From Berkelbacteria bacterium GW2011_GWE1_39_12 (GTDB lineage Bacteria; Patescibacteriota; UBA1384; UBA12157), in contig CP011213.1 of the NCBI GenBank assembly GCA_001029735.1, positions 784,298 through 848,297 on the forward strand: DNA of 64,000 bases. The letters run 5' to 3'. A program made the position numbers and the translations under genes. The notes below the pieces were generated by a model, which ran no database searches, was not told the DNA's origin, and was given only the letters and a program-made list of their open reading frames with translations. The stretch's first letter is position 1, and the number at the start of each line of letters is the position of its first letter. Shown in pieces: positions 38,606 through 59,593 of this stretch.

Positions 38606-38658
38606 CAAAGATATATGTGATTGATATATATGCAAAAAGGATCCGCAAGGGTCTTTTT

Positions 38659-38688
38659 TGGTATAATATAACTGTATTTGTAAATACA
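38659..38688 (+). promoter_or_regulatory. uvdE extended -10 promoter (TGgTATAAT) with an overlapping 7-2-7 palindrome TGTATTT-GT-AAATACA (operator-like)
   Basis: The palindrome at 38673-38688 sits at the predicted transcription start. A weak terminator for rplO lies just upstream (38628-38657). Confidence 0.45.
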
Positions 38689-38724
38689 TAGACAATATTA
38701 ATAATAGAAATCTGAGTCTAAACT

Positions 38725-39618
38725 ATGATTAGAATCGGCTATGTTGGTAACAATTTAACTTTGGGTTGTACCAGTTCCAGTACTTTTCGGCTTGCATCAT
38801 ATAGTGATGTGAGACTGATCCAAACAGTGGCATCAAATCTTGAATGTTTACAAAAGATTCAAGATTTTAATGCTGAAAACAAAATCGAACTTTTTAGAAT
38901 CAGTTCTGATCTTATTCCTTTTGCTTCTCATGAAGTTTTGTCCTTCCTGTGGCAAGAGCATTTTAGAAGCGATTTTGCCAAAATCGGTCAATTTGCAGAA
39001 GAGAATAATATGCGTTTAACCATGCATCCGGATCAATTTGTAATTTTAAACTCACAAAACAACGCTTTAACTCAAAAATCAATTTTAGAACTAAATTACC
39101 ACGCTGAGGTATTAGATTTATTAGGCACCGATTCTAGCTCAAAAATACAAATTCATATCGGCGGAGGCTATGGCGATAAAAAAGCAAGTATGAATAGGTT
39201 TATGGAAAATTACAAGCAATTGCCAGAAAAAATAAAAAGAAGATTAATAATTGAAAATGACGATCGGATCTTTACCGCTAAAGATTGTTTAAGCGTTTCG
39301 AGTAAGACCGGTATTCCGATAGTTTTAGATTATTTTCACCAGGCTTTAAATAATGACGGCGAAGAATTCATCGAAGTTTTAAATCAAGCTGCTAAAACTT
39401 GGAAACCTTCAGATGGATTTCCAATGTTGGATTATAGCAGTCAGAATATTAACAAAAGACGTGGTTCTCATGCGGAAACCTTAGATAGCGAAGATTTTAA
39501 GATATTTTTAGAAAAATTAACCGGTAACTTCGATGTTACAATTGAAATAAAAGATAAAGAAATAAGCGCGCTCAAAGCCAATCTTATTTTAAAAAGATTT
39601 AAAAAAGCGGCTTGTTAG
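38725..39618 (+). CDS. uvdE: UV DNA damage endonuclease (UvdE/UVDE family)
   Basis: UvdE-like blocks RISSDLIPFASH, HPDQFVILNS, IHIGGGYGDK and IENDD (TIM-barrel AP-endonuclease-like fold). It has its own extended -10 promoter with an operator-like palindrome. Confidence 0.75.
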   Translation: MIRIGYVGNNLTLGCTSSSTFRLASYSDVRLIQTVASNLECLQKIQDFNAENKIELFRISSDLIPFASHEVLSFLWQEHFRSDFAKIGQFAEENNMRLTMHPDQFVILNSQNNALTQKSILELNYHAEVLDLLGTDSSSKIQIHIGGGYGDKKASMNRFMENYKQLPEKIKRRLIIENDDRIFTAKDCLSVSSKTGIPIVLDYFHQALNNDGEEFIEVLNQAAKTWKPSDGFPMLDYSSQNINKRRGSHAETLDSEDFKIFLEKLTGNFDVTIEIKDKEISALKANLILKRFKKAAC

Positions 39619-40226
39619 CCGCTTACTGTGGTCACTGTCTCCAAATCGATAAATCTTCGACACTGGTCGAGACGTTCTCGAGCTTTCCCTTCTTGCTCTA
39701 GGGTCAGGTCATCTCTGCCTAGTATCCGCAGGTAAAGTGTTGCGGAGAATCGGTACGCGTCGTGGGTTTCCTGACACATATATCTATCTGCGAGCGACAG
39801 CATGTCGTCAGGGTCGGAACCTGGATCCTCAAAGACCTTCTTCGGGCAAATGAGGACTCCCTCCATGTCAAACGGATTTGTTCTCCAATGCTGCTCGCTC
39901 TCTGGCTCGACGGAGGAAAATACTCCGTCGTATTGCGAAAATCTGTAGCCAAGCACCAAGCCGGGAACATTCAACGGATTGAGCTTCGGATCCGCGGTGA
40001 TCCTCGCCATCACCGGGAACCAGCCGCCCATGAATCGTGTAAGGCTGATTGAATATGCGTAATCTCCATTATCGCTTTCCACCTCAGCCATGTATTTATC
40101 TGTCGCACTATCGAGCTGGGTGGTGACCGCTTCAATCTTACTGGCGTTCTCTCCGGACAAGATGGCAATAGCCATCCTAACCGATTTGTCCAAGTCGTTG
40201 TCTGCTATAACGCACATTACTTCCAT
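39615..40226 (-). CDS. hypothetical protein (GC-rich, acidic)
   Basis: Minus-strand ORF. The ATG is preceded by GAGGAGG. No recognisable domain. Confidence 0.4.
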   Translation of the reverse strand: MEVMCVIADNDLDKSVRMAIAILSGENASKIEAVTTQLDSATDKYMAEVESDNGDYAYSISLTRFMGGWFPVMARITADPKLNPLNVPGLVLGYRFSQYDGVFSSVEPESEQHWRTNPFDMEGVLICPKKVFEDPGSDPDDMLSLADRYMCQETHDAYRFSATLYLRILGRDDLTLEQEGKARERLDQCRRFIDLETVTTVSG

Positions 40227-40294
40227 CAACATCCTCCTCAGCGATAAAAACAATCCGTTAACATTATAGGTAATTTTTCGCCTTTTGTCAACGC

Positions 40295-40990
40295 TTGAGC
40301 TATGTTTTTGATACAATAGAACTAATGATAAATTTATTAATTATTTTCGCCGCCTTAATCCTCTTCGCATACCTCACGAACTTTTTGCTTGTTCGGTCGT
40401 TTTTAGGTTTTAGATGGCGGTTTTTTGTCGCACCAGGTGTTATTATCCACGAACTTTCTCATGCTTTCGCCTGTGTCTTAATGTTTGCCAAGGTAAAGAA
40501 AATATCATTTTTCGATAAAGATGGGGGATCAGTCACTCATGAAAAATCAAAGATCCCAATCATCGGCCCAATATTGATCTCGTTGGCACCATTGGCTGTT
40601 GGTATCTTTCTTTTCTTTTTCTTAGGTAGGATCATTCATTTGGATGGTTCGCTCGACACCTCAGCTGTCGTAAATAACCTTAAAACCATTTATTGCCAAA
40701 TTGATTTCACTAATTGGCGAAACATTCTCATCGTTTATTTACTCCTCTCCATTGCCGTGACCATGACACCAAGCTGGCAGGATTTAATTAATATGCTACT
40801 ACCGCTCGTCATTTTAGCGGGAAGTTTTTATCTGCTCTTTCGCTTTACGCATCTCGTTAATTTCTCACAATACGAGCCGTTTGTCTTGCATCTCACGCCG
40901 ATTTTAGATCTTGTGGTTTTTGTACTCGCAGTTTGTTTGGCCATTAGTTTCATCTTTTATTTGATCACTTGGGCTGTGTTTCAAAGATAG
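40295..40990 (+). CDS. polytopic membrane protein with an HExxH motif (putative intramembrane zinc metallopeptidase-like)
   Basis: 5-6 TM helices. IHELSHAF sits at the edge of the first helix pair. The start is uncertain (possible ATG at 40325). Confidence 0.4.
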   Translation: MSYVFDTIELMINLLIIFAALILFAYLTNFLLVRSFLGFRWRFFVAPGVIIHELSHAFACVLMFAKVKKISFFDKDGGSVTHEKSKIPIIGPILISLAPLAVGIFLFFFLGRIIHLDGSLDTSAVVNNLKTIYCQIDFTNWRNILIVYLLLSIAVTMTPSWQDLINMLLPLVILAGSFYLLFRFTHLVNFSQYEPFVLHLTPILDLVVFVLAVCLAISFIFYLITWAVFQR

Positions 40991-41050
40991 TTTATACTAA
41001 AAAAGGGCAAGTGTTTAACTTACCCTTGATGGTTACTTGTTAAGTATGGT

Positions 41051-41845
41051 TTATTCGTCTGACTCAATCTCTGTGATCAGACGGCTTGCCATCGCTTCAA
41101 CCAATTTCTTACGGGTCGATCCTTCCTTGTCGTCGATAATCTCGTCGATCATGCTTGGAAGGCGCAATCTGAGTTGCGTTAGAATAGCGTCTCGATCATC
41201 GTTTTCATTATAGCTATCTGTATCGAAGAACGTGCTGACGAGATCTTCGGCATCACTGATGAGCCGAGCCTTCAGCTTGTCTCGATAAGCTAGCAGTACC
41301 TCTTCGTCTAGGATGACTTTCTCGATTTGTTCAGAAATCGTATCCTTGCGTCTATCGCCAAGGTCATCCTCGTTGTCATCGAAGTATTCATCGATATCTG
41401 AATCGCTTGGGATAAGCTTGCTTCCGATCAAGCGCAGTTTTTCTTCCGGTATGTTTCCTGCGATTGCCTGATCTTTAAGCCTCTCAAGGGAATCACTGAA
41501 GAAACTTTGCGGAAGATTATCGATGATCGCTTCAAATCTCAATTGCAGCTTCTGCTGAGAAACCTGCAATGTTGTTGGGGACAACGAAAAGCCTGAAGAT
41601 TGTTCACCGATCATGGCACTGATCGTGGACTCAATTCGACTACCGATCGCTTTCTCGTAGGCTTGAACTCTTTTCTCAAAGGCTTCAAACTCTTGTCTAA
41701 CATTGACCGAATCTTTTTTGGGGATATTCTGAAGTTGAAACGTAAGTTCTGCAATTCTTTTCTTTGAAGAAAGGGCAGAACCTATTGCGACACCAACAGC
41801 GATAACACATAGAACAACTACGATAAGCATTAAACCAGACAACAT
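41051..41845 (-). CDS. hypothetical single-pass membrane protein with a coiled-coil and acidic C-terminal region
   Basis: Start at MLSGLM follows an AGGAGGGA RBS. An N-terminal TM is followed by heptad-like and D/E-rich segments. GC-rich. Confidence 0.45.
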   Translation of the reverse strand: MLSGLMLIVVVLCVIAVGVAIGSALSSKKRIAELTFQLQNIPKKDSVNVRQEFEAFEKRVQAYEKAIGSRIESTISAMIGEQSSGFSLSPTTLQVSQQKLQLRFEAIIDNLPQSFFSDSLERLKDQAIAGNIPEEKLRLIGSKLIPSDSDIDEYFDDNEDDLGDRRKDTISEQIEKVILDEEVLLAYRDKLKARLISDAEDLVSTFFDTDSYNENDDRDAILTQLRLRLPSMIDEIIDDKEGSTRKKLVEAMASRLITEIESDE

Positions 41846-42035
41846 GCTTGGATCCCTCCTGTTTGTTATGTGTGCTTTGCGAGCAACAGAGTAATATACC
41901 ATATAACTATACATTTGTAAAGGCTGTTAACATCTATTAAGTTTTGAAATATTAACCAATTAAAGTGACATGGAAAAATGTTAAGCTGTTTAAGGGTGAA
42001 AAACACAAAGCTAAAAATTAATTTAGGAAAAAACC

Positions 42036-42518
42036 ATGGAAAAAACGAAAATTACAACTGAGCCTGACAAACTGAAAATTGTTATCGAAAGAGTGCTTAA
42101 CGCGCCAAGAGAACTTGTATGGAAAGCCTTCAATGATCCGGAACTTATCGTCCAATGGTGGGGACTGAGAGATCAAACAACTGTTATCGAAAAAATGGAG
42201 GTCAAGCCTGGCGGCGAATGGAGATTTATTTCTCATAACCCAGATGGTAGTAAAGATATTTTTTATGGCGAATACAAAGAAATTAAGCCGCCTTATCTTG
42301 TTTCACAAACGTTCAACTATGAGCCAATTGGTTTAGGCCATGAATCTTTGGACACGGTTGATCTTTCGGAAATGGACGGGAAAACAAAGCTCAAAACAAC
42401 TTCAGTTTTCAAGACACTTGATGACTTAAATGGTATGATTGGGTCAGGTATGGAAAAAGGGGTTAATGAGTCATACGAACGACTCGATGACCTTTTGGAA
42501 AAAATGAAAGCTGAATAG
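42036..42518 (+). CDS. SRPBCC superfamily protein (AHSA1/Activator-of-Hsp90-ATPase-like domain)
   Basis: IERVLNAPRELVWKAFNDPELIVQWWG... is typical of the AHSA1/polyketide-cyclase-like family. 160 aa. Confidence 0.65.
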   Translation: MEKTKITTEPDKLKIVIERVLNAPRELVWKAFNDPELIVQWWGLRDQTTVIEKMEVKPGGEWRFISHNPDGSKDIFYGEYKEIKPPYLVSQTFNYEPIGLGHESLDTVDLSEMDGKTKLKTTSVFKTLDDLNGMIGSGMEKGVNESYERLDDLLEKMKAE

Positions 42519-42526
42519 ATCGTTAA

Positions 42527-43012
42527 ATGAATAAAGTTCAATTTACTCAAAAATTCAAATCCAGAATTTATTTGGGGAAATTTAACTATTGGAAGTTTTT
42601 TGTTTCGCCGGTTGAATTGTCGGAAGAAAAAATTCTAATAGAAGATTTCGCTGAATTTTATTGTCCTTGGTATTATGTAGATAATCGAGAAGTTAGCTTT
42701 AGTGAAGCGCAAAAAAATCCAACGGCAAGGGCAATAAATATAAACAAGGCCAGCAAAATTAATTTAAGTGATAGTCGAATGAAGGCGATTAGTTGTATTA
42801 AGCCTGATATTATTAGCTCGTTGAATCCAATTCCTTTAGCTCAAGATCTAAAAACAAATAAAGTGTTAGTTCTCGACAGTAATAAAACACTGATTGGTTT
42901 GTATAAATTTTTTCTCACTAACAAAATCGAAAATGTAAAAATACCGGTAGTTATAATTAAGGGGTATAATCTCGAAAAGATTGTCGGCGATTTTGAAATT
43001 ATTAATAGATAG
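42527..43012 (+). CDS. hypothetical protein
   Basis: Low-GC ORF of 161 aa with no recognisable domain. It lies 8 nt after the previous gene. Confidence 0.4.
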   Translation: MNKVQFTQKFKSRIYLGKFNYWKFFVSPVELSEEKILIEDFAEFYCPWYYVDNREVSFSEAQKNPTARAININKASKINLSDSRMKAISCIKPDIISSLNPIPLAQDLKTNKVLVLDSNKTLIGLYKFFLTNKIENVKIPVVIIKGYNLEKIVGDFEIINR

Positions 43013-43132
43013 ATAAAAATGCCCTTGATTCCAGGGCATTACCATTAGTTGATTTGACTGTGGTTTATTGATGTTTCTATTAAAAAAGGATATGATGTAC
43101 GCATCATACCTTGCTGGGTTAGGAGGATTGCA

Positions 43133-43369
43133 ATGATTATTAATTGTAGAGAGTGTGGCCATGGTCTGAGCCATAGAATACAAGGCCCGTGTGTGAATTG
43201 CGGTGAACCAGAACCATTCAAATGCTGTATCTGTGGCAGATTTCTAAATGGACCTTTGACCAACGATGTCACAACTCAGCCTACGCACAGAATCACGAGC
43301 AAAGGTCCCGTTTGCGCATCAACAAGTTGCATGGAGAAATTTATTATTCTCCAACTTTCGAAACGATGA
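43133..43369 (+). CDS. small Cys-rich zinc-ribbon-like protein (78 aa)
   Basis: CRECG...CVNCG...CCICGR...C: four or more Cys pairs. GGAGG RBS. A strong terminator hairpin lies downstream. Confidence 0.5.
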   Translation: MIINCRECGHGLSHRIQGPCVNCGEPEPFKCCICGRFLNGPLTNDVTTQPTHRITSKGPVCASTSCMEKFIILQLSKR

Positions 43370-43373
43370 TCGG

Positions 43374-43398
43374 CCGCGGATAAACCCCGCGGTTTTTT
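43374..43398 (+). terminator. intrinsic terminator after the 43133 gene (CCGCGG-ataaacc-CCGCGG + T6)
   Basis: Hairpin plus a U-run. Confidence 0.6.
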
Positions 43399-43507
43399 AA
43401 TTCCTGAGATATTCAATTTCCTTCTCACTGGTAAGATTGACTTTGACCCTTAATTTTGTTATGATTTAGCGTTATTTGTACCTACTACAATAAGGAAGGT
43501 GATTTAA

Positions 43508-44299
43508 ATGGAGTTGATTTCTCAATGTGCATTGGCTCATGGCCAACCTATAAAAGGTATAAGAACGCCTTGCTACGAATGTAATAGTACCTTCGAGATT
43601 ACTGGAAGAGAACATTACTTCGAATGGCACGGAGAAAGATACAATAGAGCTGAAAAGATCTTCCCTAAAGGTCTGGCCGATTTCATTTACTTGATCAATT
43701 ACAATTTTAGTACCGAGTATAATCTACGACGAATATATAACTTTATGGTGAAATGCCCGACGCCCGGCTGCAGAAACTGGTTAAGCATTCAAAGTAAGGA
43801 CAGTATAGAGCTTGTGGTGGCTTGGCAATACGATCAGGGAATGGTGAACTACGCGGAATATCAGAAGTCATGGCTGAATAATCTTAAAGAAAAGCTTCAT
43901 TTTGCATCAAAAGAGTCTGTGGAGCATCAAGTTTTCAGGAGTAACTTTGAAGTAAGAAAAGAAGTGCACGGGCTTATAGAAAGCATCTTGCAAACGGAAA
44001 GGTTGATTAGCTCTTATGAAGGGCTTGTAGAACAACCCTATTTGGATCGATATGTTGCTGCAAAGCATAATTTAGACACTTTGCATTCACGTTTGGAGCG
44101 TTTCTTGGTGCTTCGAGCGAAGATTGAAAGGATAACCGAAGATCTGCGAAATGCTCTAATTACCAATGCTTTTACAGAGAAAGAGGCAGAGCTCAGAGCC
44201 CAAAAGGATCTTGAATCCTTGGCGGTTAAGCAAAAGAGCGATCCTGTTGCGTGGGCAGACCTACTTTCTGCTTACGAAGACATTATACAAATCAATTAA
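43508..44299 (+). CDS. hypothetical protein with N-terminal Cys pairs (zinc-ribbon-like) and a C-terminal coiled-coil
   Basis: TTGACT-17-TATGAT promoter lies upstream. Cys pairs CALAHG...CYEC and CPTPGC. Confidence 0.45.
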   Translation: MELISQCALAHGQPIKGIRTPCYECNSTFEITGREHYFEWHGERYNRAEKIFPKGLADFIYLINYNFSTEYNLRRIYNFMVKCPTPGCRNWLSIQSKDSIELVVAWQYDQGMVNYAEYQKSWLNNLKEKLHFASKESVEHQVFRSNFEVRKEVHGLIESILQTERLISSYEGLVEQPYLDRYVAAKHNLDTLHSRLERFLVLRAKIERITEDLRNALITNAFTEKEAELRAQKDLESLAVKQKSDPVAWADLLSAYEDIIQIN

Positions 44300-44343
44300 T
44301 CATATGAGGAAGTTATTACTTCCTCTTTTTAATATCGAAATAC

Positions 44344-44370
44344 TAAAAAAGCGGTTATTTCTAACCGCTA
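44344..44370. terminator. bidirectional terminator hairpin (AAAAAAGCGGTTAtttctAACCGCT), copy 1 of an identical 27-mer
   Basis: Lies between convergent genes 43508-44299(+) and 44379-44768(-). Confidence 0.6.
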
Positions 44371-44378
44371 GAATATTC

Positions 44379-44768
44379 TCATTTAGGTCGTGACGTCTTA
44401 CGTTTGTTCTCATCTGGATGTGGATCGCAGATTTCTCTCCATTTGCTATAGTCGACCCCATTGGTTTTCGCAGGAGCTGACGGAGGCTCATCACGTCCGC
44501 ATCGCCGACACTTACCATTATTGAAATCGCAAATCATCTTGCTTTCCCCCAGAGGGATGTGACATCTTTTGCATCTTACAACTTTTGCACAGGGATGATT
44601 CTCGGTCAAGGTCGGCTCTGATTCTGCATGTTTGACACGTACTTCAGTTGCGCGGCAACCGGCGCGCATACACTTTCGCTTTTGGACGCATTCACTATCC
44701 GTGTTATATTTCCAATTGCTCCAGCTGTGTCCCGAAAAAAGACACTTTAGGCGGTCAATAATTCCCAT
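44379..44768 (-). CDS. Cys-rich (multi zinc-ribbon-like) basic protein, GC-rich
   Basis: 11 Cys in 129 aa, arranged as CxxxxC/CxxC pairs (CMRAGC, CKRC, CRRCG). Confidence 0.45.
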   Translation of the reverse strand: MGIIDRLKCLFSGHSWSNWKYNTDSECVQKRKCMRAGCRATEVRVKHAESEPTLTENHPCAKVVRCKRCHIPLGESKMICDFNNGKCRRCGRDEPPSAPAKTNGVDYSKWREICDPHPDENKRKTSRPK

Positions 44769-45001: not shown

Positions 45002-45781
45002 ATGTTATTAACATGGACTTTGTCAATTTTTGTAATAGCTGTGATTTTAAGCAGCATTAAGCAGATCAACCAATATCAGCGCGGGGTAAAGTTTAGATTG
45101 GGCAAGTTTGTAGGAATTATTGAACCAGGTTGGCGCTTAATTTTGCCTATTTTTGAATCAGTCACTAAAGTGGATATTCGCGTTAAAGCCGTCGATGTGC
45201 CAAATCAAGAAGCGATCACCAAAGACAATATTTCTGTTGGCATTAATGCAGTCATTTATTACAAAGTCGACGATGTCAGTAAAGCTATTTTGGAAGTCGA
45301 AAATTATTTCTACGCCATTTCTCAATTGGCCCAAACAACTATGCGAAATATTGTCGGTTCGGTGGATCTGGACACTTTGCTTTCCGAACGCGATAAAGTT
45401 TCAGAACAAATCCGCATGATAGTTGATAAACTTACCGATCCGTGGGGTATTAAAGTTCAAAATGTCGATCTAAAAGATGTATCCCTACCGGAAGATATGA
45501 AGCGTGTTATTGCCAAGCAAGCGGAAGCCGAACGTGAAAAAAGAGCGGTTATCACTAAAGCCGAAGGCGAAGTTATTGCTTCTACTAATTTAGCTAAAGC
45601 GGCACAGACCTTATCCGCTTCCGATGGCGCTTTGCACTTAAGAACGCTCAATACTTTAAATGATCTTTCATCGGATCAATCTAATACGGTTATTTTCGCT
45701 ATTCCTCTAGAGGTGTTAAGAGCCTTTGAAGGAAAAGGCAATGATACTCTTAAAAAACTCGCCGAGAAATTTTTAAAGTAA
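45002..45781 (+). CDS. SPFH/band-7 (stomatin/prohibitin-like) membrane protein
   Basis: N-terminal TM and SPFH-domain blocks (YQRGVKFRLGKF, TKDNISVGINAVIYYKV) with a coiled-coil C-terminus. Confidence 0.8.
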   Translation: MLLTWTLSIFVIAVILSSIKQINQYQRGVKFRLGKFVGIIEPGWRLILPIFESVTKVDIRVKAVDVPNQEAITKDNISVGINAVIYYKVDDVSKAILEVENYFYAISQLAQTTMRNIVGSVDLDTLLSERDKVSEQIRMIVDKLTDPWGIKVQNVDLKDVSLPEDMKRVIAKQAEAEREKRAVITKAEGEVIASTNLAKAAQTLSASDGALHLRTLNTLNDLSSDQSNTVIFAIPLEVLRAFEGKGNDTLKKLAEKFLK

Positions 45782-45789
45782 GACCCAAT

Positions 45790-45816: not shown

Positions 45817-45849
45817 ATACTCAGGAATAGTTTGTCCTCTTGACCGAAT

Positions 45850-47450: not shown

Positions 47451-47459
47451 AGGAGAACA

Positions 47460-52119: not shown

Positions 52120-52422
52120 ATGCCGGTAAGGAAAACGAAAAAAGCTTTGGAAAAGACAGTAAAAATAGAAAAACAAAAAGGAAGTTTTGCGTCTTCGCTT
52201 CAAAAAGCTGCCTTTACATTTGGTATTATTGGAGTATTTATTCCATTTTTTCCAATCGTGGCAATCGTGCTTGGCGCGGTCACTAAAAAAGAACTTCCAG
52301 ATAATTGGCGGGCAAAATGGGCCATCGGATTAGGTATTTTTGGAATTTTAACGTCTTTCTTGGTGATCTTTGCTTTTATCTCGTATCTTGCGCTTATTAT
52401 TGGTAATATAATTTTAGGTTAA
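52120..52422 (+). CDS. small membrane protein (2 TM)
   Basis: ATG follows AAGGATAAAT. Basic N-terminus and two hydrophobic helices. Confidence 0.45.
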   Translation: MPVRKTKKALEKTVKIEKQKGSFASSLQKAAFTFGIIGVFIPFFPIVAIVLGAVTKKELPDNWRAKWAIGLGIFGILTSFLVIFAFISYLALIIGNIILG

Positions 52423-52440
52423 CTAATTAAAGGAGGTTTC

Positions 52441-52614
52441 ATGTCAATCGTTTCAGAGTCAGAGTACAAGGGTAATCCTATGATCGTTATTAAAAACGAT
52501 GAGGAAGATAAATTTCCTTTTCAATTTGGCGTTAAAAAAGCTAAGCTAGTTTTAGAGAACATTGAAGAGATTAAGAAGTTTGTAGAAAAAAACGACAAAT
52601 TCAAAAATGAATAA
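52441..52614 (+). CDS. small hypothetical protein (57 aa), not in the ORF track because it is under 60 aa
   Basis: Strong RBS AAAGGAGGT 5 nt upstream of the ATG. It overlaps the next gene start by 8 nt. Translation is MSIVSESEYKGNPMIVIKNDEEDKFPFQFGVKKAKLVLENIEEIKKFVEKNDKFKNE. Confidence 0.45.
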   Translation: MSIVSESEYKGNPMIVIKNDEEDKFPFQFGVKKAKLVLENIEEIKKFVEKNDKFKNE

Positions 52615-53227
52615 AAAAATCGAAGTCGAGTTACGCGGGCCAATTACCAAAGAACAATTTGATCGTTTGGAAAGTCTTTTTGAAAAAGATGGCAAGTTCA
52701 TTGATCACAAGGACCGTGTTTTGATTTGCTATCCTGATCCTGATACAGGGAGCTTTGTCGAAGAATGTTTTACCGATATCCGTGTTCGTACGACTAATGG
52801 CACACCGGAAATGATAATCAAGTTAGGCAAATGGGGTGGCGACAACGAAAATCGTCGTGAATTATCACTTATGGGAAAACCTGGCGAGTTCGATAAAATG
52901 GTCGTCATGATGGCCGCCCTAGGACACAAAAAAGGTGTTTGGGCCGTACGCAAAGGGAAAGTTTTTGATTACAAAGAAGTGGAATTTTCACTTGTCGAAG
53001 TGCCGGATCATAGTTATTACTATGAAGCAGAAATAATGGTAGAAGAGGTATCTAAAGCAAAAGCAGCTCGAGTAAAAATGGAAAAACTTTGTAAAGAATT
53101 AAACCTAGAAGTTTTTGACGATGACGGTTTTTATGGTTATATCAATCGCTTAAATAAAGAATCAAATAAGGAATTTTTGTTCGAAAAGTACTCAGAGGGA
53201 TTCTTCAAAAAAGAATTTGGGATCTAG
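52607..53227 (+). CDS. CYTH-like (CyaB/thiamine-triphosphatase fold) domain protein
   Basis: N-terminal KIEVELRG resembles the EIERKF motif of CYTH, and a later acidic strand EVPDHSYYYEAEIMVE matches the fold pattern. Confidence 0.4.
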   Translation: MNKKIEVELRGPITKEQFDRLESLFEKDGKFIDHKDRVLICYPDPDTGSFVEECFTDIRVRTTNGTPEMIIKLGKWGGDNENRRELSLMGKPGEFDKMVVMMAALGHKKGVWAVRKGKVFDYKEVEFSLVEVPDHSYYYEAEIMVEEVSKAKAARVKMEKLCKELNLEVFDDDGFYGYINRLNKESNKEFLFEKYSEGFFKKEFGI

Positions 53228-53454
53228 CTTTTATATAATAGACGTGAATAGTGTTGACAATTATTGATGAGTCTGATATAATTTTTTTATCAAATGCTTA
53301 GGCACTAGAAATTCCGCCTTCTTGCAGAAGGCTGTTTCTTTTTTTGTTGCTAAGTAAGACCCTTGAAAATCTAGTTGATGTTTTTCCTCCAAAGGAGGAT
53401 GACATAGTGGTCGCCAAGGCCAGCGAAAAAAATACAGAAAAACAGGAGAAACCG

Positions 53455-54087
53455 TTGAAATTAAAAGTAATTCTCGTTCTTGCAATGATGCTCTGCGTGA
53501 GCATCGCCTTCGCTTCAGGCGGGTCAGTTACCGGTGACAGTATCGGCACGACAGTAACGTCGGTTGTCCCGACCTACATCGACTGCGTCGACGAGATGCA
53601 GGCGTTCGCGATGGGCACTCAGCACTTTACAAGCGCTTGGGGTCCCGAACGACTTGAAGGTCAGGCATCGTTTAGCGGAGCTTTGGCTTACGCGAACTGT
53701 CCAACAGTTGTCACAGTAACCGGAAACAATCCGGCCGGCGACAATATCCCGAGGCTTGCTCGTGCTGAAGTCGGTGTAAGAGCTGACGGCTTTGACCGAA
53801 TTCCCACAGTTTATGGGATTTCTGTCCTTGCCAATGGCGACAACTATCCGATTACAGACTGGCTCGACGGTTCTTCCCAGGTTCCATTTGTGGGAACAAT
53901 TGCGGAAACCCCGCACAACGGATACGTGGGCTATTCGGTTTTTATTGAAGCCAATGGAACGACAACGATCGACCCGGGGTGTTCAGTGAAAAACACCTAC
54001 ATCGATCCCAACAAGTCAAACGGCGACTCGGCTGACGCCGGCGTCTACGAGGCCAGCCTGGTCTTTACGTTGACACCCGCGCTCTAA
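53455..54087 (+). CDS. Sec-secreted beta-rich protein, putative cargo or fibre subunit of the secretin module (GC-rich ~52%)
   Basis: TTG start lies 5 nt after an AGGAGA RBS. Signal peptide MKLKVILVLAMMLCVSIAFA is followed by a Thr/Gly/Val-rich, strand-like sequence with no TM. Confidence 0.5.
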   Translation: MKLKVILVLAMMLCVSIAFASGGSVTGDSIGTTVTSVVPTYIDCVDEMQAFAMGTQHFTSAWGPERLEGQASFSGALAYANCPTVVTVTGNNPAGDNIPRLARAEVGVRADGFDRIPTVYGISVLANGDNYPITDWLDGSSQVPFVGTIAETPHNGYVGYSVFIEANGTTTIDPGCSVKNTYIDPNKSNGDSADAGVYEASLVFTLTPAL

Positions 54088-54176
54088 AGCTAGAGTGCAA
54101 AACAGGAACACAGTCTTGGCGACTGCGATCAGGGCACCCTTTCGGGGGTGCCCTAGATTTTTATTTGGAGGTAAAA

Positions 54177-55346
54177 ATGAGAGTTCCACTGTTGTTGGTT
54201 CTTTTCTTATTGAGCGCAACAGGATCTTGGGCTGTTGGAATTTATCCGGCAAAAGTTGATGTTGAAGCCCGCGCTGGCAACCAAGTAAAGTTGGTTTTTC
54301 ACATAGTGAACAAATCAGACGATACAAAGGATGCTACGCTTACACCAACCAATTTGTCGGCAGATTCAAATTTCGTTTTGGTTTTCGAACCATCGCGAAT
54401 GGGAACGCCAGCATCTTGGTTTTGGCCACAGGCTGAAGCGTTTAAGTTGCTGCCGAAGTCTGATACCGAACATGTTTTTCGAGTTAAAGTGCCGTCAGGT
54501 ACAAAACCCGGAGAATATTTTGTCGGTTTGCTTCTTGACCCTAATGAAAGCAGAGCGCTTGTCGGAAAGAAATATAAGTTAAATTTGAAGACTCGCGTAG
54601 CGGCAATCATTAAGGTTGTTGTCCCGGGCGTCGGACAATTACCGAAATCAGCCACTCTAGGGGAGTCCACAATTGTCATTGAAAAGAAGAGCCCGATCAA
54701 GTTTGGGGTTCTCTTCCAAAGCACCTGTGTATCAAGTCTTTTAGCTCGGGGGCAATGCCGCGTTATAGGTAAAAATGGAAGAGTCTTTGACTCATTTATC
54801 CTACAAGCAGCCGGTCAGAGCACAAAGGGTTCCGCGTTTGTGTTTCCTAAAGGATCGCGTCGATTTGGCGGAAAATTGCAAAGATGTTTACCTTTGGGGA
54901 GCTATACTGTGGAATTCACTTTTGACTATGGCAACGGTTGGCGTAGAGCCATGACCAAAAAGGATTTTGAAGTTACACAGGAAGTCTCTTCCGAACAAGG
55001 AAAACTCCTTATACTTGGAGTCGACAAGGAATTAATCGAAGAAGTCATTCCCAGAGGTGGGTTTCGGGCGTTTAAGACTACTGTGACGAATATCGGTTTC
55101 GAACCGACTGAAATTACAGTTTCAAAGACATTGATTGCAGAGGTATCGCCGGAAAAGGCGATTTTAGCACCTGGCGGAAAAAAAGATTTCCGAATCATTG
55201 TCAAAATGCCAAGGGATGGCGAGACTCAACTTGTTGAACAATCTGGCAAGATCAGTTTTAAACCCCAGAGTGGGGAACCGATATCTGTCGATGTGAGAAT
55301 TAAGCTCCCGGCAGAGAAATCAAGTGGAAGGAAGGAAACGGAATGA
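54177..55346 (+). CDS. periplasmic two-domain Ig-like/PapD-like protein (putative chaperone or assembly factor)
   Basis: GGAGGT RBS and signal peptide RVPLLLVLFLLSATGSWA. The N-terminal domain GIYPAKVDVEARAGNQVKLVFHIVN fits the PapD-like/MSP beta-sandwich pattern. A second beta-rich domain follows. It overlaps the secretin start by 4 nt. Confidence 0.45.
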   Translation: MRVPLLLVLFLLSATGSWAVGIYPAKVDVEARAGNQVKLVFHIVNKSDDTKDATLTPTNLSADSNFVLVFEPSRMGTPASWFWPQAEAFKLLPKSDTEHVFRVKVPSGTKPGEYFVGLLLDPNESRALVGKKYKLNLKTRVAAIIKVVVPGVGQLPKSATLGESTIVIEKKSPIKFGVLFQSTCVSSLLARGQCRVIGKNGRVFDSFILQAAGQSTKGSAFVFPKGSRRFGGKLQRCLPLGSYTVEFTFDYGNGWRRAMTKKDFEVTQEVSSEQGKLLILGVDKELIEEVIPRGGFRAFKTTVTNIGFEPTEITVSKTLIAEVSPEKAILAPGGKKDFRIIVKMPRDGETQLVEQSGKISFKPQSGEPISVDVRIKLPAEKSSGRKETE

Positions 55347-56587
55347 AAAGGTTGATATTGTGTAGTATTGCACTGTTATGTTTGTTTTTCGGTTCTTCGG
55401 TCGTCAATGCGGACCCAGCCACCAAAATTACCAATGTCTTTCAGGATACAGATATCCGCCAAGCCTTGGTCACGATAGCAGTCCAAGCTGGTGAAAATGT
55501 TGTCCCTGACTCATCGGTCGGCAACATGACTGTCACACTTGATTTGAAAGATGCGCCGTTTGAGGTTGTTTTGCAGATGATCTGCGACTCAGGCGGTTAT
55601 TCGTTCATCAAAGACGAGCATTGTTATCTTGTCGGCCAGGCCGTGCCAACTAACCCGAATTTTGACAGATTCTGCACCTCGGAAGCAGTTAAGCTGAAAA
55701 ACAGTGAAGCTTGTGAAATGGTTAAGGTTTTCAATCAATTTTACGCGCAGTATGTTAAGGCCGGCGGAACAAGGGAAAACGTTATAGTAATCTCTGCTCC
55801 ACAACGCATCAGCCAAGCTATTAAGAAGATAATTCAAGAAATCGATCAGCCAAAGAGACAGATCGAGATCGAGGTGATGGCAGTTGAAATCCAGAAGGTC
55901 AAGGGAAGAGATTTTATGCTTGATTGGACGGAAGGAAGGCCGGGCGTCAGTGGAGGAATTGAGACTCTTTCATTTGCGAACTTTGTGTTTGGTTATACAA
56001 ACACATTGTCCAAGAATGTCCTAATCGGGCTCAAAAGCGCCCTTCAAAATGGAGTTGCTAGAGTTCGTGCGAATCCACGGATAACGACAATGGACGGATA
56101 CGAAGCTTTATTTTCCTCTGGACAAGAAGATTACTTTGACACTTCCAGTCAGAATCCGAATGGATGGCAGACTGGTAAGCTCGAAAAGATCGAGTCTGGT
56201 GTCAAATTGAAAATACTGCCACGTCTAGCAGAAAATGGAGAAATCAATCTTTGTATAACGCCGGATGTGTCAGACGTCATTGGAAAAACCGAACAGGGTT
56301 TACCAAGACTTAATGTTCGGACAATGACAACGACGCTTCGGGTTAAAGACGGAGAAACGATTGTTATGGGAGGTATGCTGAGTGAGATAAGCAGATCCTC
56401 TAAAAAGAAATTGCCGATTCTAGGAGACCTTCCTCTGATCGGTTTCGCTTTCAGAAGCAACTCGACGTCCGCGATTGTGACCGATATGGCGATCCTGGTG
56501 ACGCCACGAATAGTCAACGATCTTACAACGCGAACATCTGTTGAAGCCAACTCTGATCTTCTTGAAGCCGTTGGCGAAAGACGATAA
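55343..56587 (+). CDS. secretin (GspD/PilQ/CpaC family) with one N-domain and a C-terminal secretin domain
   Basis: Signal peptide. An N0-like domain carries the STN-like motif. The Secretin_N block reads VISAPQRISQAIKKIIQEIDQPKRQIEIEVMAVEI. The C-terminal secretin signature reads LRVKDGETIVMGGM...LPILGDLPLIGFAFRS...AILVTPRIV. Confidence 0.8.
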   Translation: MKRLILCSIALLCLFFGSSVVNADPATKITNVFQDTDIRQALVTIAVQAGENVVPDSSVGNMTVTLDLKDAPFEVVLQMICDSGGYSFIKDEHCYLVGQAVPTNPNFDRFCTSEAVKLKNSEACEMVKVFNQFYAQYVKAGGTRENVIVISAPQRISQAIKKIIQEIDQPKRQIEIEVMAVEIQKVKGRDFMLDWTEGRPGVSGGIETLSFANFVFGYTNTLSKNVLIGLKSALQNGVARVRANPRITTMDGYEALFSSGQEDYFDTSSQNPNGWQTGKLEKIESGVKLKILPRLAENGEINLCITPDVSDVIGKTEQGLPRLNVRTMTTTLRVKDGETIVMGGMLSEISRSSKKKLPILGDLPLIGFAFRSNSTSAIVTDMAILVTPRIVNDLTTRTSVEANSDLLEAVGERR

Positions 56588-56606
56588 AATAATATACATT
56601 TATACG

Positions 56607-56633
56607 GGAGTAGTCACATGACTGCTCCTTTTT
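56607..56633 (+). terminator. intrinsic terminator after the secretin gene (GGAGtAGTC-acat-GACTGCTCC + T5)
   Basis: 9-bp stem with one mismatch, followed by a U-run. Confidence 0.55.
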
Positions 56634-56747
56634 AATTACAATTAAAAACGCCGAGCGGTAAACTATCCGAATTGTCGAAAGAATTATAAATTTTAATAGT
56701 TGAAAAATATATTTATCGGCTATATATTAGATATATAAGGAGAATAT

Positions 56748-56924
56748 ATGAAAATACAGGACAATGGGCCTGCAGGTGCAGTTTATGGCATGGGTTTCGT
56801 TGGCGCATTGGTTTATTTCTTAACCAATGCCGGAACTTTTTGGATTGGCGTTTTGGGCGTTCTAAAAGCCATTGTTTGGCCAGCCATCTTAGTTTACGAA
56901 GCCCTAAAGTTTTTAATTAAATAA
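56748..56924 (+). CDS. small hydrophobic protein (58 aa, 2 TM), not in the ORF track
   Basis: Strong RBS TAAGGAGAA 6 nt upstream. Translation is MKIQDNGPAGAVYGMGFVGALVYFLTNAGTFWIGVLGVLKAIVWPAILVYEALKFLIK. Confidence 0.45.
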   Translation: MKIQDNGPAGAVYGMGFVGALVYFLTNAGTFWIGVLGVLKAIVWPAILVYEALKFLIK

Positions 56925-56971: not shown

Positions 56972-57130
56972 ATTTAAATATCAAGAAGCGGTGAGAGATT
57001 TGGCTCGTTGACCCGCTACCAACCGTTCGACTAGTTGTCTAAAGGCGCTCACGGTGGTAAATCCAACCCGAAAGGGAAAGATACGGCAAGTGCAAAACTA
57101 GCTTTTTCTTTCCAATCGGAAAGTTTTTTT
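56972..57130 (+). promoter_or_regulatory. SAM-I (S-box) riboswitch with an intrinsic-terminator expression platform, leader of metK
   Basis: AUCAAGAAGCGGUGAGAGAUUUGGCUCGUUGACCCGCUACCAACC matches the S-box core (AUCAAGAG.GGYGGAGGGA.UGGCCCGAUGAA.CCCGGCAACC). It continues GGUGGUAAAUCC...GAAAGGGAAAGAUACGG and ends in the terminator CUUUCC-AAUC-GGAAAG+U7 at 57106-57130. Confidence 0.7.
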
Positions 57131-57147: not shown

Positions 57148-58107
57148 ATGCGAACAGCCGAATGTGTGAGTGCCGGCCATCCGGACAAAATTTGCGATCA
57201 AATTTCCGATGCAATACTAGATGAATGCTTGAGACAGGATCCAATGTCTCGTGTGGCAGTTGAAACTATGGGTGGTCATGGGAAGATTTTTATTTGCGGG
57301 GAGGTTACCACAAAAGCGGAGTTTAATGCTAAAGAAATTGCCATCAAAATTTATCGTGAGCTAGGCTATGAAGATGAGATAAAAGTGATTTCAAATATTG
57401 TTAAGCAAAGCCCAGATATTGCTTGCGGCGTTGATACTGGCGGGGCGGGGGATCAGGGAATAATGGTTGGTTATGCGTGTAACGATAACGAGCAGATGAT
57501 TCCGCAGGAATTATATTTGGCGAGAAAGATTTTAAGTCAATTACCAAAAAACTTTGGGCCGGATGCCAAGTGCCAAGTGACATTGGATAAAAAAAATAAT
57601 ATTGAAACAATTGTTTTGTCAGCTCAGCATACTGAAGGACAGAATTTAAAACCTCTTGAGAACTTAGTAAAAAAATATAATCCGAAAAAGTACTTTGTAA
57701 ATCCGACGGGCAAATTCGTGATCGGTGGTTTTTTTGGCGACACCGGTCTAACTGGACGCAAACTGGCTGTTGATAATTATGGCCCTCAAGTACCAATCGG
57801 CGGCGGCGCTTTTTCCGGTAAAGATCCAAGTAAAGTAGATCGCTCTGCTGCATATATGGCTCGTCGAGTCGCCGTAGATTTATTGAAAGAAAAAAAAGCA
57901 AAAGAAGTACTTGTTAAGATCGCTTATTCAATTGGTATAGCAGAGCCAGTGATGGCGATCGCTGAGATTGATGGTAAAAGATTTGAAATAACAGGCTATG
58001 ACTTAACACCTCAAGGCATAATTAAATATTTGGATCTAAGGAAACCGATTTATCTTAAAACTGCTAAACTAGGTCATTTCGGCAATAATCTTACTTGGGA
58101 CAAATAA
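57148..58107 (+). CDS. metK: S-adenosylmethionine synthetase (compact ~320-aa form)
   Basis: MRTAECVSAGHPDKICDQISDAILDE and GGGAFSGKDPSKVDRSAAYMAR signatures. Confidence 0.9.
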   Translation: MRTAECVSAGHPDKICDQISDAILDECLRQDPMSRVAVETMGGHGKIFICGEVTTKAEFNAKEIAIKIYRELGYEDEIKVISNIVKQSPDIACGVDTGGAGDQGIMVGYACNDNEQMIPQELYLARKILSQLPKNFGPDAKCQVTLDKKNNIETIVLSAQHTEGQNLKPLENLVKKYNPKKYFVNPTGKFVIGGFFGDTGLTGRKLAVDNYGPQVPIGGGAFSGKDPSKVDRSAAYMARRVAVDLLKEKKAKEVLVKIAYSIGIAEPVMAIAEIDGKRFEITGYDLTPQGIIKYLDLRKPIYLKTAKLGHFGNNLTWDK

Positions 58108-58183: not shown

Positions 58184-58396
58184 ATGTCTGATGATAACAC
58201 TCGTGTGACGGGCCTATGCAATGATTGTATGGCTGAACAAGATGTGGTGCTTGTACACGAGCTGGATAACGACGAGTTTGCCAAGAACAAGATAAACAAC
58301 AACATGCATCTCAATTTCATCCTATCTCCTCACAACTTCGGCGGCGCCATTTGCCCTGGAGTAGGGCAGCATCCAGTTGATTTGTACAACGTGTAG
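58184..58396 (+). CDS. small hypothetical Cys-containing protein (70 aa)
   Basis: ATG follows a GGAGG RBS. An intrinsic terminator lies downstream at 58419-58443. Confidence 0.35.
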   Translation: MSDDNTRVTGLCNDCMAEQDVVLVHELDNDEFAKNKINNNMHLNFILSPHNFGGAICPGVGQHPVDLYNV

Positions 58397-58460
58397 CTTG
58401 TTTTTTGGCCATTTTTTTCAAACCGGCTTTTGCCGGTTTTTTCTACCCTGTTGCGTTATC

Positions 58461-58682
58461 CTAATCTGAGATCTCTACAATTTTATTTTTATTCTTATGC
58501 CCGGCGTTAATTGTTATTAATGACTTGGGCTTTTTAAAATATTTACTTAAAGCATCAATTATTGCGCTGTTGGCTTTACCTTTTTCCGGGATAGCAGTGA
58601 CATAAACTTCGTAGGTGAGGTCATCTATTTGTTTGACAAGTGTTTTATTGGCGTTTGTTTTCGCATTTACAATTATTTTCAT
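58461..58682 (-). CDS. DUF167 (YggU/UPF0235) family protein
   Basis: 73 aa. KGKANSAIIDALSKYF...ITINAGHKNKNKIVEI matches the DUF167 pattern. Confidence 0.6.
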   Translation of the reverse strand: MKIIVNAKTNANKTLVKQIDDLTYEVYVTAIPEKGKANSAIIDALSKYFKKPKSLITINAGHKNKNKIVEISD

Positions 58683-58706
58683 AAAGTTATTATAACAAAA
58701 AACCGC

Positions 58707-59414
58707 CTATTGTTTAGGCGGCTTGGTAACAGCCGTGATGTTTTTTGGCGCTTTGTGCCAACGAAAGACAATATGGAAAGGACTCTTACCCTTAACAACA
58801 TGTCCGCCGTCAGTATTAATCGCTTCATCGCACTTAAGAACATTGGCGAAAAAACTGGCCAAAGTTCTAATATTAGTACGACTCTGAACTATGTATATAT
58901 AGCCAGAGGTAAAACCCATGCCCATTCTGTCGGTTTCTGCATCAATAAAGACCGTTTTAAAACCATCGTAGCGAAAAGGCTTGATCATCTGTCCTAAGGC
59001 AACAGCATCGATTTCCTTATTCTTATTAAGAAGCTGGTAGTCTTGAGACAGGTTGATGCGGCCATCCGGATGGATAGCAAGAAAATACCGCCCAACCTCG
59101 CGTCCTTTTACCTTTACACCGTTACGACGAAAGTAATCAACTGGAAGATTGGTTCTGCAGTCATAGAAGTTGCCAGAACAAACCGCAAAACCACCGAGCC
59201 GCTTCTTAGCTCTTTCTTTCTTTTCGCCACCAGGTTCATAGGAAATCACTGCCTCAACGTGGTTGCATCGAGGCAGCTGAACAACGAGGAATGTTGCGCC
59301 TTTGTACTTGGTAACCCAAGGTTTCACTATATGCTTGGGATGATTTTGGGTCCAAGAGGCGCACGGCAAGGCAAGTAAAGCAAGAACAACAAGAACTATC
59401 AGTAGAACTCGCAT
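58707..59414 (-). CDS. secreted phosphodiester glycosidase family (DUF2233/NAGPA-like) protein
   Basis: Signal peptide. C-terminal INTDGGHV matches the DUF2233 DGGGS-like block. GC-rich. Confidence 0.5.
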   Translation of the reverse strand: MRVLLIVLVVLALLALPCASWTQNHPKHIVKPWVTKYKGATFLVVQLPRCNHVEAVISYEPGGEKKERAKKRLGGFAVCSGNFYDCRTNLPVDYFRRNGVKVKGREVGRYFLAIHPDGRINLSQDYQLLNKNKEIDAVALGQMIKPFRYDGFKTVFIDAETDRMGMGFTSGYIYIVQSRTNIRTLASFFANVLKCDEAINTDGGHVVKGKSPFHIVFRWHKAPKNITAVTKPPKQ

Positions 59415-59498
59415 CTTAGACCTCCTATTGTTAAGGTAGATTTATTATGGCACAAAAGCGAAAACAGTCCAAAAAGTATATCATTCTGCAAGCGCTGT

Positions 59499-59538
59499 GT
59501 CAATTGGTAATTGACTATATTGCTCAACCTGATAAAAT
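59499..59538 (+). promoter_or_regulatory. secY promoter (TTGACT-16-TAAAAT) with a palindrome GTCAATT-GGT-AATTGAC overlapping the -35
   Basis: Perfect 7-bp inverted arms at 59499-59515. Confidence 0.45.
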
Positions 59539-59593
59539 GGTGTAGGATTTAAATGTAAGTAATTAAGAAATAGCTGCTTTAGGAATAATTAAT

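Follow-up and report, generated by a model that had tools for sequence, protein, structure and literature searches.

Lineage-specific gene content between rplO and secY marks a probable hotspot of gene gain and loss inside the ribosomal-protein cluster of a Berkelbacteria sub-clade

The ribosomal-protein/secY cluster is a textbook example of a gene order that resists change, and it is widely used to supply phylogenetic markers and to check genome binning. How rplO and secY come to lie 20,988 bp apart in a groundwater Candidatus Berkelbacteria genome belonging to the Candidate Phyla Radiation (CPR) forms the question addressed here. We analyzed a 64-kb stretch of this genome (GW2011_GWE1_39_12, contig CP011213.1, positions 784,298 to 848,297; hereafter the window), in which the last base of rplO is 38605 and secY begins at 59594. 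The interval between them (38606–59593) holds ~30 non-ribosomal genes, as had been claimed in a preliminary description made from the sequence alone; ~82% of it is coding, and 23 of its genes are on the plus strand and seven on the minus strand. Our analysis indicates that the rplO-secY junction in a sub-clade of Berkelbacteria is probably a hotspot of gene gain and loss, acting as a permissive gap in the str-S10-spc-alpha cluster; this class assignment derives from comparison between lineages at one site, in which the compared flanks are operon DNA.

Comparison with eight relatives, the close ones reached by protein search and exact-protein look-ups, revealed that the same junction is filled with different genes in five of them (3–25 kb, or at least 10 kb) and is intact in the other three, whose SecY proteins are 73%, 70% and 67% identical to that of the window (Table 1). 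The relatives' loci comprised 10-kb flanks around secY, and the two loci of the closest relative, L167 and L173, are located on one 131-kb contig. In the window, L167/L173, L170, L171, L169, L176 and L088, the interval is delimited by rplO and secY in the same orientation, at distances of 0.1 to 25 kb and with almost wholly different content in between. The fill of the closest relative encodes DUF5652, DUF2207, Fic and DUF1801 proteins, a D12 methylase with an AlwI endonuclease, a two-component system, PDDEXK, PMSR and a DUF167 protein, and restriction-modification systems are present in four of the five relatives' fills.

None of these relatives carries the 21-kb content of the window at the same place. 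All-against-all blastp and tblastx searches showed that the window and its closest relative have only the DUF167 gene in common, which adjoins secY in both and shares 68% amino-acid (aa) identity. With L172, the window fill shares two tiny open reading frames (ORFs), one of 57 aa (52441–52614, 89% identity) and one of 58 aa encoding a membrane protein (56748–56924, 67% identity). When all insert proteins of the window were compared with 172 loci by tblastn, no common insert genes emerged, except for DUF3175, which two loci carry downstream of secY. The flanks of the window and its closest relative are collinear over at least 10 kb on each side, including DUF7544, the beta-propeller and LysM genes, rbfA and pheST, and their proteins share 57–90% identity, except for the beta-propeller protein at 37%. 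DNA homology with the closest relative ends at 38430 on the rplO side; on the secY side, homology to all relatives restarts no more than ~35 nt from the secY start codon, and exactly at that codon for the closest one. The preliminary reading of the locus as an accessory-gene hotspot is thus supported at the level of the clade, where the same site holds different content in six lineages.

A neighbor-joining tree of SecY placed the filled lineages in two supported clades, one formed by the window, L167 and L171 (bootstrap 98–100) and the other by L170, L168 and L172 (bootstrap 94). The intact L169 groups weakly with the second clade, and the intact L088 and L176 fall outside both. The simplest reading is that the junction opened long ago in this sub-clade and that turnover has continued since, to which independent openings in separate lineages form the alternative. 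The gap can also be empty, because the junctions of L169, L176 and L088 are intact; a 64-aa ORF in the intact L169 junction was considered as an ancestral remnant and rejected, as it is unrelated to DUF167. Some sequences in the fills may have moved recently. The 57-aa ORF shared with L172 (counterpart at 7633–7797) is 89% identical between lineages whose SecY proteins are 73% identical, which hints at recent transfer or strong constraint; the counterpart of the 58-aa ORF lies at 8674–8883. A GIY-YIG gene present in the fills of both L168 (770–1024) and L172 (1792–2085) is 92% identical between the two, whose SecY proteins are 73–75% identical to that of the window, a pattern consistent with a recently moving element. 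The two Y1_Tnp transposases in the fills of L171 and L172 are 59% identical. Neither rplO nor secY fragments that could represent recombination scars were found within the fills, the only such copies being those of the secY 3' end downstream of secY.

A gap of this kind could in principle be produced by an assembly or binning artefact, in which 21 kb from elsewhere in the genome or from another organism was misjoined to rplO and secY. The only sign in this direction is that contigs of some assemblies end exactly at 38629 and 44251, which can signal branches of the assembly graph. Both junctions are nevertheless contained in single contigs from different assemblers and samples. The rplO-uvdE junction lies within a single Logan contig and an ENA ANAN16 scaffold, the rplO side being also covered by an ENA k141 contig that begins exactly at 38629, and the junction between the NAGPA-like gene and secY lies within ENA (341-kb), Logan and JGI contigs. 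All these independent contigs are 99.9–100% identical to the window. The exact SecY and UvdE proteins were found on eight and 10 contigs, respectively, from various samples and assemblers, and records of the SecY and MetK proteins include contigs of up to 915 kb. Together with the filled state of the relatives at the same site, these data make an artefact very improbable, and we regard both junctions as real. The contig ends merit a separate remark. Contigs of other assemblies from the same population (L085, L086) end exactly at 38629, 24 nt past the rplO stop codon, and at 44251, where two of them end, and one 5.6-kb contig spans exactly 38629–44251. These ends may correspond to assembly-graph branches caused by strain variants in which the sub-block from uvdE to the zinc-ribbon genes is missing or replaced.

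Analysis of the gene content gave no sign of a mobility apparatus. The families Phage_integrase, Resolvase, rve, DDE and Y1_Tnp were not found by Pfam among 33 distinct ORFs of the insert, nor was an integrase or transposase found among the 10 insert ORFs compared with PHROGs and the 10 compared with PADLOC. The whole 64-kb window has no tRNA gene, and no direct repeat of at least 16 nt links the junctions at 38.6 kb and 59.6 kb. PADLOC analysis of 10 of the ~30 insert ORFs yielded only a generic helicase similarity and no defence system; among 10 ORFs scanned against PHROGs, only the helicase and the secretin matched. The preliminary description had likewise found no integrase, recombinase, tRNA or flanking direct repeats, and its conclusion that the block is not a recent mobile-element insertion fits their absence.

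The composition of the interval is close to that of its surroundings. The mean GC content is 0.407 inside and 0.405 outside, tetranucleotide usage is highly correlated between the two (r = 0.96), and 3-kb sliding windows do not differ (p = 0.16). The heterogeneous GC content noted previously holds gene by gene, with values of 0.30–0.55 and several genes at 0.51–0.55, but not for the interval mean, which equals that outside. GC content at third codon positions is higher (0.401 against 0.353, p = 0.004) and more dispersed inside, a comparison weakened because highly expressed ribosomal genes make up most of the outside set. The secretin block at 52.5–57 kb deviates most, with a GC content of 0.44 and a tetranucleotide correlation of 0.86. 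The fill thus appears to combine mostly host-adapted genes with a few that deviate in composition, rather than to be a freshly acquired foreign block. Given this host-like oligonucleotide usage, it would be old or acquired from related Berkelbacteria. The former view of the locus as long-lived fits the host-like tetranucleotide usage, the DUF167 gene in common with the sister lineage and the filled state in two supported SecY clades.

These outliers bear on the possibility that the interval is the remains of one or more integrative elements (genomic island, prophage or filamentous-phage-like element, for example), which entered by site-specific integration and have since lost their integrase and att sites. 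The 414-aa secretin aligns over its full length to the M13 pIV family (PHROG 1012, 161 bits) and lies in the GC-richest and most deviant 4–5 kb; the helicase belongs to a Dda/Pif1-like family (PHROG 325); some genes exceed the genome mean by 10–15 GC points; and integrases that insert at gene 3' ends leave a duplicated target end, which the tandem copy of the secY 3' end resembles. All secretins are homologous, however, and the PDB matches of this one comprise GspD, PilQ and pIV, the best among the solved structures being GspD. Two secreted beta-rich ORFs precede it (53485–55346). No Zot/pI ATPase was found near the secretin, and the PHROG-scanned ORFs include neither an integrase or transposase nor a Zot/pI ATPase, a replication initiator, a capsid or a tail protein. 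A search for an inovirus-like remnant found the secretin as the only match to a phage family, its two upstream neighbors giving no PHROG match and Zot and Rep no Pfam match; a scan of viral contigs with the helicase returned nothing. Moreover, the 21 kb lack flanking repeats and a tRNA, and the copies of the secY end lie 110 nt apart, downstream of secY, and also occur in the intact L176. A decayed element is, on this balance, an unlikely origin of the fill. CPR bacteria are not known to have an outer membrane, which makes a secretin unexpected there.

The interval does not consist of accessory genes only, since it includes a housekeeping metK unit with an S-adenosylmethionine (SAM) riboswitch. 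The identities of MetK to its relatives (79, 76, 75, 73 and 72%) fall off similarly to those of SecY (82, 78, 76 and 75%), which is consistent with vertical descent of the metK unit within the clade, as judged from these protein identities. In two relatives (L174, L175), metK lies away from secY in unrelated neighborhoods, the SAM riboswitch being kept in L175. The rplO-secY gap can capture housekeeping units, because the metK unit sits in the fill here and elsewhere in the relatives.

The same observation leads to ordinary decay of synteny as another explanation, in which an ancestor of the sub-clade lost the linkage of rplO and secY once, by an insertion or a small rearrangement, and the interval has since behaved like any non-operon DNA of these small, quickly rearranging genomes, with no special propensity or mechanism. 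The metK neighborhoods are entirely different in three lineages, the fill combines a housekeeping-type metK and riboswitch with host-like oligonucleotide usage, and flank recombination was not detected in trees. Gene order outside operons may be poorly kept throughout these genomes, so that turnover in the interval may not exceed the average, and this is the main argument for synteny decay. On the other hand, wherever both ends are seen, the flanks stay 0.1–25 kb apart in the same orientation, while general rearrangement should scatter them. The restriction-modification pairs, AIPR, Fic, GIY-YIG and Y1 transposase genes of the relatives are typical cargo of gene-flux hotspots, and the DUF7544, beta-propeller and LysM insertions in the same cluster have remained stable over the same divergence.

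SecY scans of genome and metagenome collections, which returned mostly distant CPR (best identities 59% and 67% among the matches listed), placed the junction in a wider frame. A locus was taken as informative if it had at least 1.5 kb upstream of secY or an identifiable upstream rplO or rpsE. In the more distant CPR loci among the matches listed, secY usually adjoins rplO; extra DNA or a break was detected in 17 of the 149 informative loci with SecY identities of 40–60% (CPR and other), and 12 of the 17 are robust, that is, with at least 1 kb of extra DNA or with no ribosomal genes upstream. By comparison, five of the seven loci with SecY identity of at least 70% are filled. The junction had been called universally conserved; it is indeed usually intact, but it is broken in ~8–11% of the more distant CPR loci among the matches listed. 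In well-studied clades, breaks inside the spc operon are rare, and secY lies outside the operon in one of the species studied (Brandis 2021, PMC8046335). The distant broken loci usually hold one or a few mostly housekeeping genes (purL, typA, dnaX, guaA, glycosyltransferases), a point in favor of synteny decay. One locus, L106, was rejected as a split junction, since ribosomal genes up to rplF directly precede its secY; it represents a different anomaly, with secY directly after rplF (9014–10001) and rplR, rpsE and rplO not detected between them. Taken as a whole, synteny decay is a possible but rather unlikely account of the gap in the sub-clade.

Several observations weigh against a hotspot. 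No variation was seen within the species, all same-species contigs being 99.9–100% identical and possibly derived from one aquifer population, and turnover is documented only between lineages whose SecY proteins differ by at least 18%. Neighbor-joining trees of the left flank, SecY and the right flank show no supported conflict, the right-hand trees being unresolved, and on either side the window groups with its 82% relative as sister; in the trees of LysM, adk and map, L171 falls outside the window clade, with bootstrap values of only 15–55. The comparison covered all but 5.5 kb of the sister fill and the right-hand parts of the L168 and L172 fills. The window fill itself has no recognizable defence or mobile genes, unlike the fills of the relatives.

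As for how such a gap could be maintained, candidate signals of transcription lie at both of its ends. On the left, a terminator-like hairpin with a T-run follows rplO and is itself followed by a TATAAT motif before uvdE; the hairpin was read from the sequence, and the consensus terminator scan did not list it. On the right, the spacer before secY contains a sigma-70-like TTGACT-16-TAAAAT site on the plus strand (59511–59538), a good consensus match, and a divergent TTGACA-17-TATACT site on the minus strand (59503–59475). The proposal that secY has its own promoter agrees with the former site, as a consensus match only. Across the interval, terminator-like sites are about twice as frequent as in shuffled sequences (22 against 9.1 ± 3.2, and 25 against 11.2 ± 3.8), and this excess suggests that the interval is organized as many small, independent transcription units. 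The window fill may accordingly be described as a mosaic of small, separately terminated units with repair, stress and envelope functions, plus the metK unit.

In the hotspot reading, the gap would become transcriptionally neutral once a separate promoter served secY and a terminator closed off rplO. DNA inserted there would no longer disturb the expression of ribosomal proteins or SecY, so that insertions would be tolerated. Imported DNA would then recombine through the very conserved flanking core genes, mostly without dedicated integrases, and occasional insertion or deletion mediated by insertion sequences (IS) or by illegitimate recombination would add to the exchange. CPR bacteria probably rely on taking up DNA. 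We infer exchange by recombination in the flanks as the route.

A stronger version of this model would see in the gap a dedicated, integrase-free exchange site, at which blocks of cargo, and sometimes secY itself, are swapped between diverged lineages by DNA uptake and recombination in the ultra-conserved ribosomal and secY flanks, with the secY 3' copies as footprints of replacement by foreign-lineage alleles. We consider this version doubtful. The copies on which it draws consist of the last 20 codons and the stop codon of secY, repeated in tandem downstream of the gene. The repeat was found in five Berkelbacteria lineages, namely the window, L167 (three copies), L168, L170 and L176, with hairpin-bearing spacers of 47–86 nt; this amounts to six of 170 loci, counting two contigs of the window's own species, and none of the other loci scanned has it. 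In the window, the two copies are identical at 50 of 63 nt and differ by one amino acid; in L168 and L176, the copies are identical. In the remaining cases, nearly every difference between copies is synonymous (12 nt with one aa change, 13 with one, 12 with none and five with none), a pattern that random substitution matches in less than one of 20,000 trials for the larger cases. This suggests that the extra copies may be refreshed from working secY ends, by gene conversion or by replacement of secY with diverged alleles, or may be under coding constraint themselves; the synonymous differences are compatible with allele replacement and also with other explanations. A more speculative variant holds that the copies are functional in their own right, for instance as a translated or regulatory element. 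The repeat is not tied to the fill, because it is also present in L176, where the junction is intact. Two further candidates were rejected: a diversity-generating retroelement, as the differences are not adenine-specific and no reverse transcriptase lies nearby, and translation of the extra copy by frameshift or read-through, as the frame offset varies from genome to genome (0, 1 or 2) and a stop codon lies directly before the window copy.

The locus shares its main features with the chromosomal hotspots of Oliveira et al. 2017 (PMC5635113). Both have a fixed interval between two persistent genes that holds different accessory genes in each genome, with defence and mobile genes at the site in relatives and, in this instance, no integrase or tRNA. 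Many of those hotspots lack mobile elements and show recombination in the core genes beside them, and hotspots are more frequent in species that can be transformed (Oliveira et al. 2017, PMC5635113). For the present locus, exchange by double recombination in the flanking core genes is proposed. They were defined within species and between ordinary core genes, whereas the variation described here is between lineages whose SecY proteins differ by 18–27% and occurs inside the spc ribosomal operon.

Insertions of non-ribosomal genes into the conserved cluster, with the flanking order kept, have also been described by Brandis 2021 (PMC8046335), who proposed duplication with loss, transposon-directed events and transfer from close relatives as mechanisms. 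Those analyzed in detail comprise few genes, lie mostly between operons and are largely kept within a clade; by contrast, the present gap is within spc, reaches 21–25 kb and differs in content in each lineage. In the collection of papers searched, none joins rplO, secY and hotspot, and no CPR paper was among the matches listed for genomic-island hotspots.

Defence islands are variable loci at which restriction-modification, abortive-infection and toxin genes cluster. The fills of the relatives resemble them, by Pfam names, in their type II pairs (AlwI, HinfI, BsaWI, MutH-like) and their AIPR, Fic and GIY-YIG genes, while the window fill matched no PADLOC model except the generic helicase (10 of ~30 ORFs). 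With integrase-mediated islands and prophages, the locus shares a large non-core block at a defined site, some atypical GC content and a duplicated secY 3' end nearby; it differs from them in having no integrase, tRNA or end repeats, in its host-like oligonucleotide usage and in a secY-end copy that does not bracket the block. Overall, the locus is probably of a known kind, a hotspot bounded by core genes, in an unusual place inside the ribosomal cluster.

One CPR clade thus tolerates a lineage-specific cargo bay of 3–25 kb at one internal junction of the cluster, which implies that secY expression is uncoupled from the spc operon there. For genome reconstruction, contig breaks or foreign-looking genes inside the marker block need not mean misassembly or contamination. 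The rplO-secY junction also provides an easily located site from which accessory and defence genes of uncultured Berkelbacteria can be harvested. If flank recombination holds true, it would offer a natural test case for gene exchange in tiny genomes with few mobile elements.

Table 1. Features of the window (positions within the 64-kb stretch) and state of the rplO-secY junction in relatives (SecY, identity to the window protein; positions within the respective locus).
Feature	Position	Strand	Evidence and remarks
Left flank: rplF, rplR, rpsE, rplO, end of spc ribosomal block	36660..38605	+	Pfam
Terminator-like hairpin and T-run after rplO, then TATAAT before uvdE	38629..38665	+	Read from sequence; left boundary of variable interval
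Sub-block 1: UvdE to zinc-ribbon-like ORFs	38725..44768	mixed	Pfam, translations
UvdE	38725..39618		Pfam
AHSA1/SRPBCC	42036..42518		Pfam
Sub-block 2: SPFH/Band 7 to 90-aa membrane ORF	45002..48716	mixed	Pfam
SPFH	45002..45781		Pfam
His_Phos_1	47460..48005		Pfam
Sub-block 3: helicase to 57-aa ORF	49159..52614	+	Pfam, PHROG
Pif1 helicase	49159..50520	+	Pfam; PHROG 325 Dda-like helicase, 237 bits
DUF3175	51194..51478	+	Pfam
HEAT	51677..52012	+	Pfam
Sub-block 4: CYTH-like ORF to 58-aa membrane ORF	52607..56924	+	GC-richest part of interval
Secretin, short, 414 aa	55343..56587	+	PF00263, 134.6 bits
SAM-I riboswitch	56975..57087	+	Rfam RF00162, 49.4 bits
metK	57148..58107	+	Pfam
DUF167/YggU	58461..58682	-	E = 1.1e-17
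NAGPA-like secreted protein	58707..59414	-	Weak match, 23.7 bits
Divergent promoter-like sites in 179-bp spacer before secY	59475..59538	both	Consensus matches only
Right flank: secY	59594..60868	+	PF00344, 329 bits
Tandem copy of secY last 20 codons and stop	60806..60868 and 60916..60978	+	47-nt spacer with palindrome
Two-gene insertion secY-adk (330-aa beta-propeller-like, LysM), then adk	60988..63369	+	Pfam
Junction in L167 and L173			SecY 82%; ~25.0 kb fill, ~19.5 kb seen
Junction in L171			SecY 76%; ~3.1–3.4 kb fill, includes IS200/IS605-type Y1 transposase
Junction in L168 (RBG_13_40_8)			SecY 75%; at least 10 kb fill: Bro-N, GIY-YIG, methylase and HinfI, PGA_cap
Junction in L170			SecY 75%; 6.9 kb fill: MazG, BsaWI and methylase, AIPR, FtsK-gamma, zincin
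Junction in L172			SecY 73%; at least 10 kb fill: NYN, methylase and MutH-like, Y1 transposase, TspO, CDGSH
Junction in L169			SecY 73%; intact (307 bp), no fill
Junction in L176 (GW2011_GWB1_38_5)			SecY 70%; intact (106 bp), no fill
Junction in L088			SecY 67%; intact, no fill
secY 3' repeat in L167	11216..11527		
secY 3' repeat in L168	11213..11388		
secY 3' repeat in L170	11213..11424		
secY 3' repeat in L176	11213..11398		

Upstream of the interval, the genes follow the order rpsL, rpsG, a 126-aa membrane ORF, fusA, a 180-aa ORF on the minus strand, DUF7544, tuf, rpsJ and rplC through rplF, rplR and rpsE. The identity of rplO was confirmed by TIGR01071 (125.8 bits; cutoff 77.95), and rpmD is absent from the left-flank spc block, as in other CPR genomes. 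The end of rplO and the position of secY are as given previously, whereas the start assigned to rpsJ, 30026, is that of rplC; rpsJ itself occupies 29622–29945. In L171, rplO is split into two ORFs (6346–6853), by a frameshift or a sequencing error. Downstream of secY come the 330-aa beta-propeller-like ORF, the LysM gene and then adk.

The fill of the window can be divided into four sub-blocks, followed by the metK unit and two minus-strand genes next to secY. Sub-block 1, with per-gene GC contents of 0.30–0.51, encodes UvdE, a 203-aa protein (minus strand), an M50B-like membrane protein, a 264-aa acidic coiled-coil-like protein (minus strand), an SRPBCC/AHSA1 protein and a 161-aa protein, in addition to three Cys-rich zinc-ribbon-like ORFs of 78, 263 and 129 aa at 43133, 43508 and 44379 (the last on the minus strand), recognized in the translations; PADLOC and PHROG scans of this sub-block gave no matches. 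Sub-block 2 comprises, besides the SPFH gene, two small membrane or low-complexity ORFs on the minus strand, a 159-aa ORF, a histidine phosphatase, a possible DUF2779 fragment and a 90-aa membrane ORF. The possible fragment, a 91-aa ORF at 48085–48360, resembles only the C-terminal end of DUF2779 (weakly, E = 0.15) and may be left from gene decay within the interval. Two identical 27-nt terminator hairpins with a AGCGGTTAGAAATAACCGCT core, of which none is expected by chance, lie 1,446 bp apart at 44344–44370 and 45790–45816. Each is located directly 3' of a minus-strand gene, and the pair encloses a zinc-ribbon ORF together with the SPFH gene, possibly as the sign of a module that was duplicated or inserted.

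Sub-block 3 consists of the Pif1/Dda-like helicase, a 189-aa membrane ORF, DUF3175, a HEAT-repeat ORF (GC 0.53), a 100-aa membrane ORF and the 57-aa ORF, whereas sub-block 4 contains a CYTH-like ORF, a secreted 200-aa protein (GC 0.55), a secreted 389-aa beta-rich protein, the secretin and the 58-aa membrane ORF. The CYTH-like ORF (52607–53227) matches cyaB/CYTH below threshold (30.2 bits). Compared to the gene list of the preliminary description, UvdE, SRPBCC, SPFH, Pif1, DUF3175, the secretin, metK with its SAM riboswitch and the zinc-ribbon proteins, as Cys-rich zinc-ribbon-like ORFs, were recovered; the CYTH protein was recovered at sub-threshold level only, and the KGG stress protein could not be verified.

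Smaller insertions interrupt the cluster elsewhere. They had been regarded as being of the same kind as the large one; they do exist at rpsG-fusA, fusA-tuf and secY-adk, but DUF7544, the beta-propeller and the LysM genes are conserved in relatives. The rpsG-fusA junction holds the 126-aa membrane ORF (23799–24179), and the fusA-tuf junction holds the 180-aa ORF (26542–27084, minus strand) and DUF7544 (27277–28251), the latter kept between fusA and tuf in the closest relative (L173 1–790). Between secY and adk, the LysM gene is present in all eight relatives and the beta-propeller gene occupies its position in seven of the eight, and in five of them its sequence is detectably similar. This insertion is fixed and clade-specific, in contrast to the variable rplO-secY gap. 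The two genes lie at 60988–62682, the beta-propeller-like one with faint Tricorn-type matches, and a third, PsbP-like gene stands between secY and adk in three lineages. The map-infA junction holds lineage-specific genes in L169, L170, L171 and L176.

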